Source of the DNA: a virus
Lineage: Duplodnaviria; Heunggongvirae; Uroviricota; Caudoviricetes
Length of the DNA: 8,610 bases
Reading direction: 5' to 3' (one strand)
Virus record (IMG/VR): IMGVR_UViG_2778261030_000017
Coordinates: 1 to 8,610 of that record
Numbering within the stretch: position 1 is the first letter of the stretch; each line of letters starts with the position of its first letter. Position numbers and translations under genes: made by a program. The notes under the pieces are model-generated. The model was not told the DNA's origin. It searched no databases and saw only the letters and a program-made list of their open reading frames with translations. This document shows, piece after piece, positions 2,452-7,954 of this stretch.

Positions 2452-2570
2452 GAGACCAGGCGGGGGAGTAATCTCCCGCCACCTCTGATGTGTCAGGCAT
2501 CCTCAACGCACCCGCGCTTTACCATACTGAAAATGCTGTTTGAATGTTCATCTCTGAAAGAGGACTATGA

Positions 2571-2915
2571 ATGAAAAAGGTATTGATTGCAGCACTTATT
2601 TCCGGTGTGTCTTTTGGCGCTTTTGCACAGCAGGGTGGTTTCCAGGGGCCAGAAGCAGAGCGTTCAACAGTAGCGCAGGCAAAAGAACTGAAGGATGATG
2701 CATGGGTTATCCTTGAAGGGAGCATCGTTAAAAAAGTGGGTGATGAACGTTATGAGTTTCGTGACAATAGCGGGACAATTGTCACGGATATTGATGACAG
2801 CGTATGGGCCGGGCAGAATGTTTCTCCGAAAGACAAAGTAAGAATTGAGGGTGAAATTGATAAAGACCTGAGCAGTGTTGAAGTTGATGTAAAGGCACTG
2901 AAATTATTAAAGTAA
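2571..2915 (+). CDS. secreted OB-fold protein, YgiW/YdeI (BOF, DUF388) family, 114 aa
   Basis: N-terminal signal peptide MKKVLIAALISGVSFGAFA followed by QQGGFQGP. The mature part follows the YgiW-type pattern (KDDAWVILEGSIVKKVGDERYEFRDNSGTIVTDIDDSVW...KDKVRIEGEIDKD). RBS AGAGGA lies 6 nt upstream of the ATG. Confidence 0.85.
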   Translation: MKKVLIAALISGVSFGAFAQQGGFQGPEAERSTVAQAKELKDDAWVILEGSIVKKVGDERYEFRDNSGTIVTDIDDSVWAGQNVSPKDKVRIEGEIDKDLSSVEVDVKALKLLK

Positions 2916-2933
2916 CCGCCCCTGCTTGTTAAG

Positions 2934-2960
2934 CCCGTCTTACTGACGGGTTTTCTGTTT
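2934..2960 (+). terminator. rho-independent terminator after the YgiW-like gene
   Basis: CCCGTC (2934-2939), loop TTACT, GACGGG (2945-2950), then TTTTCTGTTT. Confidence 0.6.
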
Positions 2961-2987
2961 GTACATTCCGGCGTATTGCCTTACAAT
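2959..2987 (+). promoter_or_regulatory. candidate sigma70 promoter for the operon running from the 3037 ORF through DUF968, rusA and Q
   Basis: TTGTAC (2959-2964), 17-nt spacer, TACAAT (2982-2987), about 50 nt upstream of ATG 3037. Found by eye only. Confidence 0.3.
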
Positions 2988-3036
2988 TCGCGCAGTCAGC
3001 CTGAACAACTGACACCTGCTGTCACCGGAGAATCCG

Positions 3037-3309
3037 ATGACACAACACATAAAATCCCACAATTCTGAAGCCGACCCGGAAATTAAGCAGGGGAGGCGTT
3101 TTCGTGCGCCTCAGTATGGCTGGTTTCACTATCTGTTCTGTACGATCGATGAGGCAGATATGCTTCAAGAGGCGTATCTGCGTCGCGGTGTCCGTGTGGA
3201 GCGGAGTCTGAACGCTGATCGTCTGACCTGGACCGTTTCTGTATATCTTCCTGTTCGTGCACATCTGCCACGGACACATGCCTGCTACCGTCAGCGCGTC
3301 TGGAGGTAA
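3037..3309 (+). CDS. hypothetical protein (90 aa), translationally coupled to the DUF968 gene
   Basis: GGAG at 3027-3030 sits 6 nt before ATG 3037. The stop TAA 3307-3309 is followed by the GTG start of the next gene at 3311. Family not recognised. Confidence 0.5.
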   Translation: MTQHIKSHNSEADPEIKQGRRFRAPQYGWFHYLFCTIDEADMLQEAYLRRGVRVERSLNADRLTWTVSVYLPVRAHLPRTHACYRQRVWR

Positions 3310-3310
3310 T

Positions 3311-4360
3311 GTGCGGGTATTACTTCGACCTGTTCTGGTTCCGGAACTCGGGCTGGTGGTCCTTAAGCCCGGTCGTGAATCATTGCCAGTTTTTCATCGC
3401 GGCAGGGTGCTGGTGGAGCCGGAACCGAAAAACATGCGGGCGCTGCCATCTGGAGCGGTTCCTACTGTTCGCCAGCCGCTGGCGGAAGATAAATCACTGC
3501 TGCCATTTTTCAGCGATGAGCGGGTGATTCGTGCAGCTGGCGGCGCTGGTGCACTGTCTGACTGGTTATTACGTCACGTGAAATCCTGCCAGTGGCCACA
3601 CGGCGATTATCATCACAGCGAAACCGTTATTCACAGTTACGGTGCTGGCGCAATGGTGTTGTGCTGGCACTGCGACAACCAGCTGCGCGACCAGACCTCC
3701 GAATCACTTGAGCAACTTACTCAACAAAATCTGACAGCCTGGATGATTGACGTCATACGCCATGTAATGAATGGCACGCAGGAGCGGGAATTATCGCTGG
3801 CTGAATTATCCTGGTGGGCGGTCCGCAATCAGGTGGCGGACGCGCTACCGGAAGCGGTATTACGTCGTTCGCTGGGGTTGCGTGCGGAAAAAATCCGCTC
3901 AATGTACCGTGAAAGCGACATCATACCGGGAGAACAGACCGCCACCAGCATACTGAAGCAGCGCACAAAAAATATTGCGCTACCGCCTCACACCCACCAG
4001 CAACAGAACCCACCACAGGAAAAGACGGTGGTCAGCATTGCCGTTGATCCGGAGTCTCCGGAATCCTTCATGAAACGACCTAAACGTCGCCGCTGGGTAA
4101 ATGAGAAATACACACGCTGGGTAAAGACACAGCCGTGTGCGTGTTGTGGTAAGCCAGCGGACGATCCTCATCATCTGATTGGTCATGGTCAGGGTGGAAT
4201 GGGAACAAAATCCCACGATATTTTCACGCTACCGCTGTGTCGGGAGCATCACAACGAGCTTCATGCGGATCCGCTGGCGTTCGAAGAAAAGCATGGTTCC
4301 CAGGTTGATTTAATTTTTCGTTTTCTTGATCACGCCTTTGCAACCGGCGTGCTCGGGTAA
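3311..4360 (+). CDS. DUF968 family phage protein (YdfU-like) with a C-terminal Cys/His HNH-like zinc motif, 349 aa
   Basis: Start reassigned to GTG 3311 (RBS GGAGG 3302-3306, 4-nt spacing), giving (M)RVLLRPVLVPELGLVVLKPGRE... and a 349-aa product that fits my recollection of YdfU-like proteins. C-terminal motif CACCGKPADDPHHLIGHG...CREHHNELH. The ORF-track start at 3257 has no RBS. Confidence 0.85.
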   Translation: MRVLLRPVLVPELGLVVLKPGRESLPVFHRGRVLVEPEPKNMRALPSGAVPTVRQPLAEDKSLLPFFSDERVIRAAGGAGALSDWLLRHVKSCQWPHGDYHHSETVIHSYGAGAMVLCWHCDNQLRDQTSESLEQLTQQNLTAWMIDVIRHVMNGTQERELSLAELSWWAVRNQVADALPEAVLRRSLGLRAEKIRSMYRESDIIPGEQTATSILKQRTKNIALPPHTHQQQNPPQEKTVVSIAVDPESPESFMKRPKRRRWVNEKYTRWVKTQPCACCGKPADDPHHLIGHGQGGMGTKSHDIFTLPLCREHHNELHADPLAFEEKHGSQVDLIFRFLDHAFATGVLG

Positions 4361-4372
4361 AAGAGGTTACTG

Positions 4373-4744
4373 ATGCGTATAGAGTTTGTTTTGCTTTACC
4401 CGCCGACGGTGAACACCTACTGGCGACGTCGTGGCAGCACATATTTTGTATCAAAAGCCGGTGAGCGTTATCGCCGGGCTGTGGCGCTTATTGTTCGCCA
4501 GCAGCGGCTGAAATTAAGCCTGTCCGGAAGGCTGGCGATAAAGGTGATTGCAGAGCCACCGGATAAGCGCCGCCGTGACCTGGACAACATTCTGAAAGCA
4601 CCGCTGGATGCGCTGACGCATGCGGAAGTGCTCATTGATGACGAGCAGTTTGATGAAATCAATATTGTGCGCGGTCAGCCTGTGCCAGGTGGACGGCTGG
4701 GCGTGAAGATTTACGAAATCAGAGGTGGTAACGATGGCGCGTGA
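4373..4744 (+). CDS. rusA: RusA family Holliday-junction resolvase
   Basis: 123 aa with the RusA signature [39 protein letters not shown] lies 6 nt upstream of the ATG. Position between the DUF968 gene and Q is the usual nin-region place. Confidence 0.9.
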
Positions 4745-5105
4745 TATCCAGATGGTTCTTGAGCGATGGGGGGCATGGGCAGCAAATAATCATGAAGATG
4801 TAACATGGCCCTCGATAGCTGCTGGTTTTAAAGGATTAATCCCGACTAAAGTGAAATCACGTCCTAAGTGTTCTGATGATGACGCCATGATAATTTGTGG
4901 TTGTATGGCACGATTAAACAAGAATAATCAGTATTTGCACGATTTGTTGGTGGATTATTACGTAGGTGGAATGACATTTATGGCTCTTGCACGTAAGCAT
5001 AGATGTTCTGATGGGCTTATTGGTAAAAGGCTTTATAAAGCGGAAGGTATTATTGAAGGAATGCTTATGGCTCTGAATGTCCGGTTAGATATGGATATGC
5101 GGTAG
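4734..5105 (+). CDS. late-gene antiterminator Q (phage antitermination protein Q family, QuuD-like)
   Basis: [25 protein letters not shown]...[11 protein letters not shown]...[27 protein letters not shown] matches my recollection of QuuD/82-type Q proteins. Start ATG 4734 follows GAGGTGG and overlaps the rusA stop by 11 nt. The ORF-track start at 4725 is a GTG inside that RBS. Confidence 0.85.
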
Positions 5106-5196
5106 GGATATATAGTGATGAGGGTTATGTTTTCTGTGTTTATAATTAACATGTTTATTTTTTGATGGTCATGTATTGTGGAAGGTAGATAAAATG

Positions 5197-5225
5197 TTGC
5201 CTGGTGAATTGAAAATATTGATAAT
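5197..5225 (+). promoter_or_regulatory. candidate sigma70 promoter for the CPBP gene
   Basis: TTGCCT (5197-5202), 17-nt spacer, GATAAT (5220-5225), about 30 nt upstream of ATG 5257. A separate perfect TATAAT at 5141-5146 may belong to the phage late promoter, but I cannot assign it. Confidence 0.3.
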
Positions 5226-5256
5226 CAATCTTCATCATTAAATAAAAGGAGTGCTT

Positions 5257-6075
5257 ATGTGGATTGTGTTAGTACTGTCACTGTCAACTCTCAGTTGGCA
5301 TAAGGTAGTGGCTTTTTCATTGTTGACGGTGTCTGTTGTCCTGGCTGTGCTTAATGATATTATTGATTGGTCGGTGTTATTTTTTGTTGCTACAATCGTT
5401 TTTTTTATTATTTTGAAGTTCAACTGGAAATATAACGCCTGGGCTAAATCTATATATGAAGTTGGCATAGTTTTATCAGCCATAGCATTATCTTTCCATC
5501 TATGGCCAGGGTTTCACAATCCTGTAGTGCTAAATTCTGTTACTGTTGGCCCTCAAAGTACTCCCTATACAATGTATTTTAATTTTGATAAAGCGCTGGT
5601 GCCATTTTTGTTAGTCCTGTGTACATCTTCTTTGTTTAAAAAAGAAGTAAAATCAGAAGTGTCTTTGTGGAAGTGGGGGGCTCTGTCGCTCTCTGTTCCT
5701 CTTATCCTGTTTTTGGCTGTTTTTTTTGGTGGATTAAAGCCAGAGATTCATTTTCCTGAGTGGTTGCCAGAGTTTATATTGGCTAATTTGTTTTTTGTGT
5801 CTCTGGCAGAGGAATCATTATTTAGAGGGTATATTCAATCACGGCTATCAGAAGTAACGTCTCCATTGGTTGCATTAATTGTGGCGGCTTTGTTGTTTGG
5901 TTTTTATCACTATTCAGGTGGTGCTTTACTTGTATTATTTGCCACGTTATCTGGTGTTGTGTATGGATTGTCATGGATGTGGAGTGGGCGTTTGTGGGTT
6001 GCCACCCTTTTCCATTTTGGTTTGAATCTGTGTCACTTGTTATTCTTTACCTATCCATTTTTAAAACATAATTGA
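5257..6075 (+). CDS. CPBP family intramembrane metalloprotease (CAAX protease / Abi domain), polytopic membrane protein, 272 aa
   Basis: All three CPBP motifs are present in order: EExxxR (AEESLFRGY), FxxxH (FGFYHYS), HxxxN (HFGLNLCH). Multiple hydrophobic helices. Start placed at ATG 5257 because AAGGAG 5246-5251 sits 5 nt upstream (the ORF-track GTG at 5251 lies inside the RBS). Strongly AT-rich compared with the Q gene immediately upstream. Confidence 0.85.
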   Translation: MWIVLVLSLSTLSWHKVVAFSLLTVSVVLAVLNDIIDWSVLFFVATIVFFIILKFNWKYNAWAKSIYEVGIVLSAIALSFHLWPGFHNPVVLNSVTVGPQSTPYTMYFNFDKALVPFLLVLCTSSLFKKEVKSEVSLWKWGALSLSVPLILFLAVFFGGLKPEIHFPEWLPEFILANLFFVSLAEESLFRGYIQSRLSEVTSPLVALIVAALLFGFYHYSGGALLVLFATLSGVVYGLSWMWSGRLWVATLFHFGLNLCHLLFFTYPFLKHN

Positions 6076-6216
6076 TTTTTTCTATGGTTTTAAATTTATA
6101 AGACTGAAAAATAGCAGGACGTGACATTTGCATGAAAAATATGCACGGCAAAGCATTTACGTACGTAAAAAATCAGGTATGCTGTTAAGAGTGGTTATTT
6201 CGCCGCATAGCTTGAC

Positions 6217-6240
6217 CCCGCCTCTGAGCGGGTTTTTTGT
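6217..6240 (+). terminator. rho-independent terminator downstream of the CPBP gene
   Basis: CCCGC (6217-6221), loop CTCTGA, GCGGG (6228-6232), then TTTTTTGT. Confidence 0.6.
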
Positions 6241-6361
6241 GCCCGCAAAGTAGCGCAGTGCGTTAAATGTGCTGGTAGTTATTAATACAGGTCTTTCAGC
6301 TTGCTGGCTTTTTCGACAAGAGTTATTGGTGTGTCACGTTAACCGGAAAGGGTAAAAAGAC

Positions 6362-6601
6362 ATGCTGAAACAGCAGGATATGACAGAAACCGCCAGAGTT
6401 GTGTTTGATGAATTAAGCGTCACCGAACCGGCGACGGTCGGGGAGATTGCGCAGAATACGTACCTTTCACGCGAGCGCTGCCAGTTAATACTGACCCAGC
6501 TGGTTATGCGGGTCTGGCAGACTATCAGTTCGGTTGTTACAGACGCCTTCAGTCCTGAAGGCTTTTTTATTTGTGGTAAATGGGCGGCTGGTGGGTGTTA
6601 G
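6362..6601 (+). CDS. questionable small ORF (79 aa, possible small HTH protein); may instead be non-coding late-leader RNA
   Basis: The ORF has backbone-like GC and a segment that could be a helix-turn-helix (TVGEIAQNTYLSRERCQLILTQL). Its last 57 nt contain a strong intrinsic terminator (6545-6570) upstream of the stop, and the RBS is weak. Coding status doubtful. Confidence 0.3.
   Translation: MLKQQDMTETARVVFDELSVTEPATVGEIAQNTYLSRERCQLILTQLVMRVWQTISSVVTDAFSPEGFFICGKWAAGGC
6545..6570 (+). terminator. strong rho-independent terminator (candidate tR'-like late-leader terminator)
   Basis: GCCTTCA (6545-6551), loop GTCC, TGAAGGC (6556-6562), then TTTTTTATTT. Perfect 7-bp stem. Confidence 0.6.
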
Positions 6602-6695: not shown

Positions 6696-7409
6696 ATGGT
6701 TGTTGTCTGTTCAGTTATCATGGTTTGCTCCCCAATTAATATTTTTCTTGAAAAGGATACGTTGTCACTTAAGCCCGGCTCAGTCGTTCTGGCCACCAAA
6801 TGCATCAGGGCGCTTTTCCTTATGCATTATGGCAAAGTTAAAATTTTCGATATAAACCATTCCATAGTAAGTCAATATCTGGAAATTCAGCATAAGCTGA
6901 CAAGAACTCATCTGACTGACGTTCCGCTTTATCTGTCACTGGAACCCAACAACCCTGCGTTGGCTGAGGCTTTAATTACCAGCCAGAGATTTTCCGGAGA
7001 TACCACGGATATGTTTCTTATGATGGCATGCCTGTCGCTGTTTGAATCAGATGAACGGATATTATTATTTTTAAGTGGATGTTTATCCAGTATAAGTGCC
7101 AAAGTCAGGGCGATAATTCAGACAGATATATCAGCAAGCTGGACGCTTGGTGCGATTGCGTTACGCCTGCATATGAGTGAGAGTTTGTTAAAGATAAAAC
7201 TGAAAAATGAAGGGCACATGTTCAGTCGCTTGTTGCTGGAAGAGCGGATGCGTGTTGCTGTCAATATGTTATGTTCCCGGCATGGATATGGACAGGCTGT
7301 AGCAGAAAAATGCGGTTATTCAAGCTGGTCCTACTTTATTTCTGTATTTCACCGCTATTATGGCTTCCCGCCAGACAGATATGTATCCAGGCAAGGGCTT
7401 GATTATTGA
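6696..7409 (+). CDS. AraC/XylS family transcriptional regulator, small GadX/YdeO/AppY-like type (resembles prophage-encoded PatE/Psr-type regulators)
   Basis: 237 aa. The C-terminal about 100 aa show the AraC double-HTH pattern (WTLGAIALRLHMSESLLKIKLKNEGHMFSRLLLEERMRVAVNMLCSRHGYGQAVAEKCGYSSWSYFISVFHRYYGFPPDRY). The N-terminus MVVVCSVIMVC resembles AppY-type proteins as I recall them. AT-rich island; weak RBS, start could alternatively be ATG 6720. Confidence 0.85.
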   Translation: MVVVCSVIMVCSPINIFLEKDTLSLKPGSVVLATKCIRALFLMHYGKVKIFDINHSIVSQYLEIQHKLTRTHLTDVPLYLSLEPNNPALAEALITSQRFSGDTTDMFLMMACLSLFESDERILLFLSGCLSSISAKVRAIIQTDISASWTLGAIALRLHMSESLLKIKLKNEGHMFSRLLLEERMRVAVNMLCSRHGYGQAVAEKCGYSSWSYFISVFHRYYGFPPDRYVSRQGLDY

Positions 7410-7437: not shown

Positions 7438-7513
7438 GGCCCTTTAGCTCAGTGGTGAGAGCGAGCGACTCATAATCGCCAGGTCGCTGGTTCAAATCCA
7501 GCAAGGGCCACCA
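7438..7513 (+). tRNA. ileZ: tRNA with CAT anticodon, Ile2 (lysidine-type, ileX/ileZ-like) rather than Met
   Basis: 76-nt cloverleaf folded by hand: acceptor GGCCCTT/AAGGGCC, D-arm GCTC-AGTGGTGA-GAGC, anticodon loop CTCATAA, T-arm GCTGG-TTCAAAT-CCAGC, discriminator A, encoded CCA. Closely resembles E. coli ileX as I recall it. Confidence 0.85.
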
Positions 7514-7520
7514 TCACATA

Positions 7521-7597
7521 CCGCCATTAGCTCATCAGGAAAGAGCGCCAGCTTTCGAAGCTGGTTGCGCGGAGTTCGGGTCCCCGAAGGCGGTCCA
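7521..7597 (+). tRNA. argN: tRNA-Arg (anticodon TCG), divergent and possibly a weak or pseudo-tRNA
   Basis: 77-nt fold with anticodon stem CCAGC/GCTGG and loop TTTCGAA (anticodon TCG), and a canonical D-arm. The acceptor stem has one A-A mismatch, the T-stem one A-C mismatch, and the T-loop is TTCGGGT instead of TTCRANT. Gene symbol assigned by position in the Stx-phage trio only. Confidence 0.55.
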
Positions 7598-7610
7598 TTA
7601 TCTGTATCCT

Positions 7611-7687
7611 GCGTTGTTAGCTCAGCCGGACAGAGCAATTGCCTTCTAAGCAATCGGTCACTGGTTCGAATCCAGTACAACGCGCCA
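7611..7687 (+). tRNA. argO: tRNA-Arg (anticodon TCT, reads AGA)
   Basis: 77-nt cloverleaf: acceptor GCGTTGT/ACAACGC, D-arm GCTC-AGCCGGACA-GAGC, anticodon stem ATTGC/GCAAT with loop CTTCTAA, T-arm ACTGG-TTCGAAT-CCAGT, discriminator G, CCA. Confidence 0.85.
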
Positions 7688-7727: not shown

Positions 7728-7923
7728 AAATGTCTCACAATTCAGGCGGTTGACTGTTGTCTGGTTTGCGGGGAGTTTGTTAAAAGAAACTGGCATGGTG
7801 AATCCCCCTGTGCGGAGGGGCAATCAGCGAGTAGGTATATGGGATAATCGCGGATTCAGGTGCTGGTACTGAATTCACCGGGAGGCACCCGGCACCATGC
7901 AATGGCACATAGCGCCACTCTCC

Positions 7924-7950
7924 AGCCCCTCTCCGGAGGGGCTTTCTTAT
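7924..7950 (+). terminator. terminator-like hairpin (+ strand)
   Basis: AGCCCCTC (7924-7931), loop TCCG, GAGGGGCT (7936-7943), perfect 8-bp stem, followed by TTCTTAT. Confidence 0.45.
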
Positions 7951-7954
7951 GGAC

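Follow-up and report, generated by a model that had tools for sequence, protein, structure and literature searches.

A CPBP-family membrane protease gene in a cargo cassette between Q and PR' of the Escherichia coli O157:H7 prophage Sp4

What is a solitary gene for a membrane protease doing next to the antiterminator gene Q of a lambdoid prophage? The question is raised by an 8,610-nt stretch of tailed-phage DNA (IMG/VR record IMGVR_UViG_2778261030_000017; 'the window' below means this whole stretch), which corresponds to prophage Sp4 of Escherichia coli O157:H7 Sakai. The window is 98.4-98.9% identical to Sakai Sp4 except at 2524-3298, and the interval that concerns us, 5106-6250, is 100% identical in O145, O111 and other enterohaemorrhagic E. 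coli (EHEC) genomes. The original prediction, made from the letters alone, was that this interval holds a stand-alone protease of the CPBP/Abi family that is a candidate phage-exclusion or immunity module. Here we find that the gene is indeed stand-alone CPBP protease cargo, but that phage exclusion and toxin immunity receive no positive support from the defence-system database PADLOC, from gene neighbourhoods or from the literature. Its family is native, as a single chromosomal gene, to many Enterobacterales and also to Pseudomonas aeruginosa, and the prophage gene is a copy captured from it. The explanation that we favour, and judge reasonably probable, is that this captured chromosomal protease forms a cassette of autonomous cargo placed after Q and ahead of PR', the late promoter, that the lysogen probably expresses it, and that its substrate is embedded in the membrane.

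The gene, ECs1085 (WP_000265267.1), lies on the forward strand at 5257-6075 and encodes 272 amino acids; it is annotated as a CPBP (Rce1-like) glutamic-type intramembrane endopeptidase and, as had been claimed, it is the one gene of its block. The frame is open from 5251 (GTG) or 5257 (ATG) to 6075, and we take the ATG at 5257 as the true start because an AAGGAG Shine-Dalgarno sequence at 5246-5251 stands 5 nt upstream of it and all 34 of 34 aligned homologues begin with MW. Minus-strand open reading frames (ORFs) within the gene (5238-5483 and 5822-5974) were considered and set aside for want of support, and Rfam recognised no known RNA in 5106-6250. The locus had been put forward as undescribed, which does not hold for the gene itself: the Sakai annotation lists ECs1085 as a "phage CAAX amino terminal protease family protein", RefSeq as a CPBP endopeptidase, and PHROGs places it in phrog_13291. 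Literature searches by protein accession and locus tags returned nothing on ECs1085, and only ECs1087, which is psrA.

The protein carries the hallmarks of its enzyme family. The two checks that the original prediction proposed, a hidden Markov model search with PF02517 and a transmembrane prediction, both bear out its description as a polytopic CPBP protein: residues 171-260 match PF02517 (Rce1-like) in Pfam with 70.6 bits against a cut-off of 22.4, and about 10 helices are predicted. PF02517 is likewise assigned to all 120 homologues among the matches listed; CPBP subfamilies in NCBIfam are matched below threshold only, and the full-length match in PHROGs is to a family of unknown function. 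All three catalytic motifs (EExxxR, FxxxH and HxxxN) were located, as EESLFR at residues 185-190, FGFYH at 214-218 and HFGLN at 253-257. Among 34 aligned homologues from phages and chromosomes, E185, E186, R190, F214, H218 and H253 are invariant and N257 is at least 90% conserved. An AlphaFold2 model built on the same 34-homologue alignment (pLDDT 92.3, pTM 0.90, about 10 helices) predicts a polytopic helical fold like that of MmRce1; searched with the family sequence profile, the PDB gave no match. The family also conserves segments of its own, H81, PGFHN (84-88), G98..S101..MY(Y/F)NFDKALVPF (106-117) and GGLKxExHxPxW (158-169), of which the MY(Y/F)NFDKALVPF region forms a beta-hairpin in the model, and by the positive-inside rule these segments are predicted to face the periplasm. 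Proteins that have kept the CPBP fold without being proteases, namely SpdC, LnsB and APH-1, have lost catalytic residues (PMC7387801). Since the ECs1085 product, unlike these, keeps them, we regard the protein as an active intramembrane endopeptidase of the glutamic type, an activity that is read from its intact motifs only.

How the gene sits in the prophage is revealed by comparison with relatives that carry something else, or nothing, in the same place. Its left neighbour is the antiterminator gene Q (ECs1084, 4734-5105, forward strand), annotated in RefSeq as a 372-nt coding sequence. The encoded protein belongs to the Q933/PF06530 family (PF06530, 174.5 bits), is 82-84% identical to Q of the Stx2a phage P13374 and is distantly related to Q21 (PDB 6P18). 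Three comparisons set the boundaries of an AT-rich cassette of about 1.05 kb (5096-6155, forward strand) made up of a candidate promoter and the CPBP gene. In GN05476 (locus L002), which has a related Q and an ORF6N gene as cargo, homology to the window stops at 5095 and restarts at 6130-6156. Phages ev207 and 434B have the window's Q family followed by a reverse-strand porin gene (annotated NmpC or OmpD), and ev207 has in common with the window only Q and 6156-6237, the latter placed after the porin, with about 140 nt separating it from the holin. Strain C311 has a Stx1d prophage whose homology to the window extends from RusA across Q and the CPBP gene and is lost after 6242-6275. Taken together, these comparisons argue that 6156-6240 travels with the Q family and not with the cargo. 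Other occupants of the slot are the ORF6N protein (L002, 2528-3088), a DnaD_N/HTH_36 protein in Shigella phage 7888 (L021, 383-976) and the reverse-strand porin of ev207/434B (L018, 3076-4218). The window's Q family occurs without the CPBP gene in ev207, 434B, P13374 and GN05476, and no deposited phage with this Q family was found to have it; deposited phages gave no DNA match to the block and, at the protein level, only two weak Listeria fragments.

The composition of the block tells the same story of a single-gene, foreign insertion directly after Q. GC content is 0.361 over the cassette (5096-6155) and 0.379 over the CPBP gene, against about 0.50 in the cassette flanks; among the phage copies it is 0.36-0.41 against 0.45-0.52 in the flanks. 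The gene both deviates in composition and is absent from close relatives, as expected of a moron. The change had been said to begin at the Q stop. The AT-rich block is real (0.34-0.39 over about 4950-6300, compared with 0.50-0.57 over 3000-4800), but its onset lies inside Q, the 3' half of which has already dropped (0.393 at 4801-5100). Neither the window nor any homologous context inspected holds a partner gene, in agreement with the original prediction.

The position of the cassette relative to the late promoter proved to be the point at which the earlier picture needs redrawing. Immediately to its right, at 6156-6183 on the forward strand, is a PR' homologue with an embedded Q-binding region: a -35 element TTTACG (6156-6161), a 16-nt spacer and a -10 element TATGCT (6178-6183), with a predicted transcription start at about 6190, followed by a short leader, a GC-rich hairpin and a T-run. 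Part of the qut/QBE should fall between the -35 and -10 elements (PMC6266700; Q21 architecture). This block is conserved in eight diverse loci, among them Stx2a phage P13374, in which it starts at the end of the Q gene; it is present in all Q933/PF06530 loci whatever their cargo and in 83 deposited phages. For the Stx2a phage of Sakai, the PR' start and the 3' end at tR' have been mapped 258 nt apart by dRNA-seq and Term-seq (Sy, Lan and Tree, PMC7547250). In the homologous element of Sakai Sp5 (TTTACG-16-TATCAT) we predict the start at about 846 in locus coordinates, and exactly 258 nt after this predicted start, at 1103, comes the end of the U-run that belongs to a GCCAGCC..GGCTGGC hairpin. 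Both Sp5 sites fit the published coordinates with one and the same 142-bp offset between record versions, an offset that is our own calibration. We therefore identify the window block as PR' through its homology to the Sp5 element that matches the mapped 258-nt transcript.

The hairpin and T-run at 6217-6240 (forward strand, about +28 to +50 of the PR' leader) had been taken for a strong terminator of the CPBP gene's own. They exist but belong to the PR' block, and are found also in phages that have no CPBP gene; being the first hairpin 3' of the gene, they leave it with no private terminator. The equivalent Sp5 hairpin (L022, 869-890; +24 to +52) lies inside, and is read through by, the 258-nt PR' transcript, the precursor of StxS, for which reason we rejected the hairpin at 6217-6240 as tR', the main terminator. 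The fold of the PR' leader is unexceptional (z = -1.31). A layout with PR' directly after Q and the gene inside the PR'-tR' leader was likewise rejected, since homology to loci with a related Q stops before the Q stop codon and restarts only after the cassette, and since the block that resumes there matches the mapped PR' of Sp5. Nor did we retain the multicopy prophage small RNA HnrS as a product of this block, because it is encoded in Sp9, Sp10 and Sp12 and not in Sp4. It should also be mentioned that 6286-6316 (ggtctttcagcttgctggctttttcgac) resembles a degenerate remnant of the StxS terminator, and a short constitutive StxS-like RNA may be made from the PR' region of the non-Stx prophage Sp4.

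It follows that the comparison with Stx toxin cargo at the junction of Q and the late genes, on which the original prediction leaned, fails in its geography: the cassette lies between Q and PR', and not after tR' where stx sits. A position downstream of PR' and tR' is found neither in the window nor in 40 of the 43 IMG/VR loci. Because it precedes PR' in the Q933 lineage, the gene there does not depend on Q as a late gene such as stx does.

Which signals, then, might serve its expression? A consensus scan gives a candidate sigma-70 promoter, TTGCCT-17-GATAAT, at 5197-5225 on the forward strand. In copies of 84-97% identity the hexamers are kept as TTGCCA or TTGTCA with GATAAT while spacer and flanks vary, and the clades of 60% identity have TTGACA..TATAAT or TTGCAT-18-TATAAA at the equivalent position. 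This conserved hexamer footprint supports a candidate autonomous sigma-70 promoter, and to this extent the plausible promoter of the original prediction stands.

The association of the gene with Q is both widespread and old. The block is present in 572 of 5426 complete E. coli genomes, 547 of these copies being at least 99% identical to it. The order Q933-type Q, CPBP gene, PR' block is seen in 40 of 43 IMG/VR loci, with 146-201 nt between Q and the CPBP gene (loci with an unbroken CPBP match) and 73-97 nt between the CPBP stop and the PR' block. Copies of 59-62% identity in E. coli and Shigella prophages likewise follow a PF06530 Q, and synonymous sites between the window and copies of 60% identity are saturated for both Q and the CPBP gene, which suggests that the pair has long travelled together. 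Values of dN/dS among phage copies (0.12-0.30) indicate purifying selection, 39 of 42 complete IMG/VR copies are intact, and the gene is retained intact in Sp4, a defective prophage (PMC2669165). A copy of 55% identity follows an unrelated antiterminator of the lambda-Q type (PF03589) and precedes the holin; only in this lineage does a promoter-plus-strong-hairpin unit resembling pR'-tR' stand between Q and the CPBP gene. Neighbour-joining groups the Q933-linked copies in one clade (199 of 200 bootstraps) and the lambda-Q-linked copies in another (200 of 200), and a clade of all phage copies is recovered in 7 of 200. Because the phage copies thus do not form one clade, either the post-Q position was reached at least twice or the gene has moved between phage lineages. 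Of the two settings in which the original prediction proposed to look for homologues, prophage Q-junctions were confirmed, behind two unrelated Q families, but bacteriocin loci were not: no bacteriocin gene lies beside a homologue in the window or in the prophage and chromosomal contexts inspected.

Outside prophages the family has a different life. At about 45-55% identity, at least 183 species-representative genomes have a homologue as a single chromosomal gene; essentially all listed species of Photorhabdus, Xenorhabdus, Proteus, Providencia and Serratia carry one, as does P. aeruginosa. Their contexts are non-syntenic and housekeeping-like, for example modF-CPBP-galE in Hafnia and gpmI-CPBP-M23 peptidase in P. 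aeruginosa, and one Salmonella copy lies within an island rich in insertion sequences. At none of 80 chromosomal loci examined does Q, RusA, DUF968 or a holin lie within 3 kb of the gene. The median difference in GC between gene and flanks is -0.003 at the chromosomal loci, whereas phage copies lie 8-12 points below their flanks. Among the top 120 matches all members from E. coli, Shigella and E. albertii fall in the phage clade, and in these hosts the family is confined to prophages. The chromosomal homologue closest to the lambda-Q-linked copies (L025, L026; 6001-6822) lies a few kb from yccX-tusE-yccA, the neighbourhood that is the integration site of the Sp4-type prophage in E. coli; this may be coincidence.

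According to the explanation we favour, the cassette is self-contained cargo, a 'moron', in a variable slot between Q and PR' of Q933-type lambdoid prophages. In the lysogen it would be transcribed from its own candidate promoter, and on induction it would receive additional read-through transcription from PR via Q, with transcripts running on into the PR' block. By analogy with its family, a glutamate of the E185/E186 pair, aided by H218, H253 and N257, would hydrolyse a peptide bond in a substrate embedded in the membrane and admitted laterally, and the beta-hairpin MY(Y/F)NFDKALVPF and the loop GGLKxExHxPxW on the periplasmic side would probably select that substrate. The least certain step is the role itself: in the lysogen the protease may do the same envelope job that its chromosomal orthologues do elsewhere, which would make it a lysogenic-conversion function and not a dedicated abortive-infection system.

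Several observations weigh against this explanation. AT-rich DNA of this kind is often silenced by H-NS, which would work against expression in the lysogen, and the promoter is a sequence footprint only. The searchable literature holds no expression, activity or phenotype data for ECs1085. Three of the 42 complete IMG/VR copies (L061, L066 and L070) have premature stops that leave ORFs of 52-159 codons at more than 99% DNA identity, so the gene is dispensable and is sometimes lost. Recurrence beside lysis genes behind two unrelated Q families could point to a role in the phage cycle or against other phages, and the lack of synteny among chromosomal copies also fits an accessory, conflict-related gene.

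A more novel reading makes the gene a single-gene protective determinant, through which the lysogen's protease would cleave a foreign membrane-inserting polypeptide in the inner membrane, either an ejection or tape-measure protein of an incoming phage or a peptide toxin. We regard this as doubtful. It can be divided according to the polypeptide attacked. In its phage-directed form, superinfection exclusion or abortive infection, the protease would block infection by cleaving a membrane-inserting protein of the incoming phage (tape-measure, ejection protein or holin). Cargo beside Q and the lysis genes occupies a typical site of lysogen-protective genes, and such a role would accommodate the recurrence after Q down to 55-62% identity, the purifying selection on phage copies and the retention in defective Sp4; moreover, the ORF6N cargo of the same slot weakly matches the PADLOC candidate system PDC-S05 (E 6.5e-5). 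No CPBP member tested matches PADLOC, however: PADLOC-DB v2 gave no match at E <= 0.1 for the window protein and none at E <= 0.01 for four other phage and chromosomal members. The argument from the family name also falls away. A preprint calls PF02517's designation 'Abi (abortive infection)' no longer appropriate (bioRxiv 10.1101/2023.06.07.544157), and a 2026 review of lactococcal Abi systems mentions no CAAX, Rce1 or PF02517 protein. Searches of the literature for CPBP together with prophage, defence or O157 found no paper on ECs1085 and no anti-phage CPBP protein. Finally, orthologues of about 50% identity keep the substrate-side motifs although they are chromosomal genus-wide and, as described above, stand apart from phage genes (their neighbours were not scanned for defence genes). 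Native orthologues with the same conserved substrate-side motifs argue for a target that is common to the cell and not specific to phages, and we consider exclusion unlikely.

In its toxin-directed form the gene would confer orphan immunity against a membrane-acting peptide (a bacteriocin, a microcin or a host antimicrobial peptide), in the manner of CPBP immunity proteins of Gram-positive bacteria. Conserved, family-specific loops predicted to face the periplasm would suit this role, and the solitary, non-syntenic and horizontally mobile distribution resembles that of orphan immunity genes. Against this, no bacteriocin, microcin or toxin gene adjoins the gene in about 15 contexts inspected, its near-universal presence in several genera is unlike a strain-variable immunity gene, and we found no Gram-negative precedent. 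Toxin immunity, too, we consider unlikely.

A role in the lytic programme, in which the protease would process a holin, antiholin, spanin or host membrane protein and so tune lysis or protect the infected cell, we hold to be quite improbable. In every case the gene does stand between Q and the genes for lysis; induction would have it co-transcribed with Q in the window lineage, and in lambda-Q-type prophages, where the pR'-tR'-like unit is 5' of it and the holin 3', it would be made as the first late gene. Yet cultured phages with the same Q family grow normally without it, its side of PR' differs between lineages so that its timing is not fixed, chromosomal orthologues stand outside any phage context, and Sp4, which keeps it, is unable to complete a lytic cycle by itself. 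A non-catalytic scaffold or regulator that binds and modulates a membrane enzyme or sensor kinase, like SpdC/LyrA, LnsB or APH-1, is highly improbable, since the co-opted members lost their catalytic residues and here E185, E186, R190, H218 and H253 are invariant, and N257 nearly so, in 34 sequences.

Set beside known systems, the captured protease that we favour adds a new, uncharacterised member to an established enzyme family, and its genomic slot is also of an established kind. It resembles the CPBP/Rce1-like endopeptidases (PF02517; prototype MmRce1, PDB 4CAD) in family model, motifs and polytopic fold. It differs from MmRce1-type enzymes in having about 10 predicted helices, and in a beta-hairpin and a loop, specific to its family, which the general model lacks. 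We know of no CAAX-type prenylated substrate in E. coli. SpdC/LyrA of Staphylococcus aureus (PDB 6U0O) lacks key catalytic residues and partners the glucosaminidase SagB, whereas the window protein, 15% identical to it, keeps all of them. Some sources label homologues of the window protein 'lysostaphin resistance A-like'. With the CPBP bacteriocin self-immunity proteins of Gram-positive bacteria it has in common the domain family, the form of a single small membrane protein and a proposed protective role, but those genes adjoin bacteriocin structural genes, a neighbour that ECs1085 and the homologues inspected do not have. In genomic habit it resembles the morons of the Q-lysis region of lambdoid phages (stx and the NmpC/OmpD porins), which are likewise optional, compositionally deviant, equipped with a promoter of their own (a candidate one here) and absent from sister phages. 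Where stx lies 3' of PR'-tR' and depends on Q, the ECs1085 cassette of the Q933 lineage is flanked by Q and PR' and is not under Q control; and its product would be an inner-membrane enzyme, not a toxin or a porin.

The window as a whole is Q-proximal DNA of a lambdoid prophage, and it holds further cargo. Its 5' part runs through DUF977, an AT-rich reverse-strand ORF, hok/sok and a BOF-family gene, followed by a DUF968 gene (3257-4360) and a RusA gene (4373-4744) that lead into Q. The reverse-strand ORF, ECs1077 (918-1691, 257 amino acids, GC about 0.30-0.35, phrog_8493), has a weak sub-threshold esterase match and is another uncharacterised cargo gene of the early region. The type I toxin-antitoxin locus hok/sok occupies 2127-2451, with a Hok-family ORF at 2239-2451 (PF01848) and a sok RNA at 2127-2301 (Rfam, 113.5 bits). 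The segment 2524-3298, which has no match in Sakai Sp4 between flanks of 98-99% identity, holds the BOF (YgiW/YdeI-family) gene at 2571-2915 and is a local module exchange. Downstream, a module from about 6256 to the tRNA genes occurs also in prophages with a different Q family (L003). It includes the small ORF ECs1086 (6362-6601, 79 amino acids, phrog_331) between PR' and psrA, which PGAP labels hypothetical in certain genomes and 'TrmB family transcriptional regulator' in others. The AraC-like gene at 6696-7409 is psrA (ECs1087), which encodes a prophage regulator that activates gadE and represses type III secretion; its coding sequence is 588 nt long in the Sakai annotation and 714 nt by PGAP. 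Three phage tRNA genes follow (7438-7687), the ileZ-argN-argO trio usual in Stx-type phages; the first, at 7438-7513, is tRNA-Met (anticodon CAT) by ARAGORN and ileZ (tRNA-Ile with CAT) in RefSeq. Just 3' of the three tRNA genes is a match to the STnc100 small RNA (7764-7954; Rfam, 138 bits).

About one in ten complete E. coli genomes carries the gene, mostly EHEC (O157, O145, O111, O103 and O121), and once it lies directly upstream of stx1d. That copy, 84% identical, separates Q from stx1d in strain C311 (L004, NZ_CP062204.1, 5616-8974), whose intact-looking Stx1d prophage would be a convenient inducible system for the gene. The correction of the map, with the cassette between Q and PR' and the hairpin assigned to the late-control leader, matters for engineering and for interpreting the Q-PR'-stx region. 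Were the gene a protective determinant after all, a CPBP protein would for the first time have an anti-phage or anti-toxin role demonstrated in Gram-negative bacteria, and a family found in at least 183 species would gain its first function. Beyond the prophage, ECs1085 is part of a conserved and unstudied branch of Gram-negative CPBP proteases, and the identity of its substrate would give a function to a gene that is spread through the Enterobacterales and also occurs in P. aeruginosa, as well as a reason why lambdoid phages have retained it for so long beside Q.

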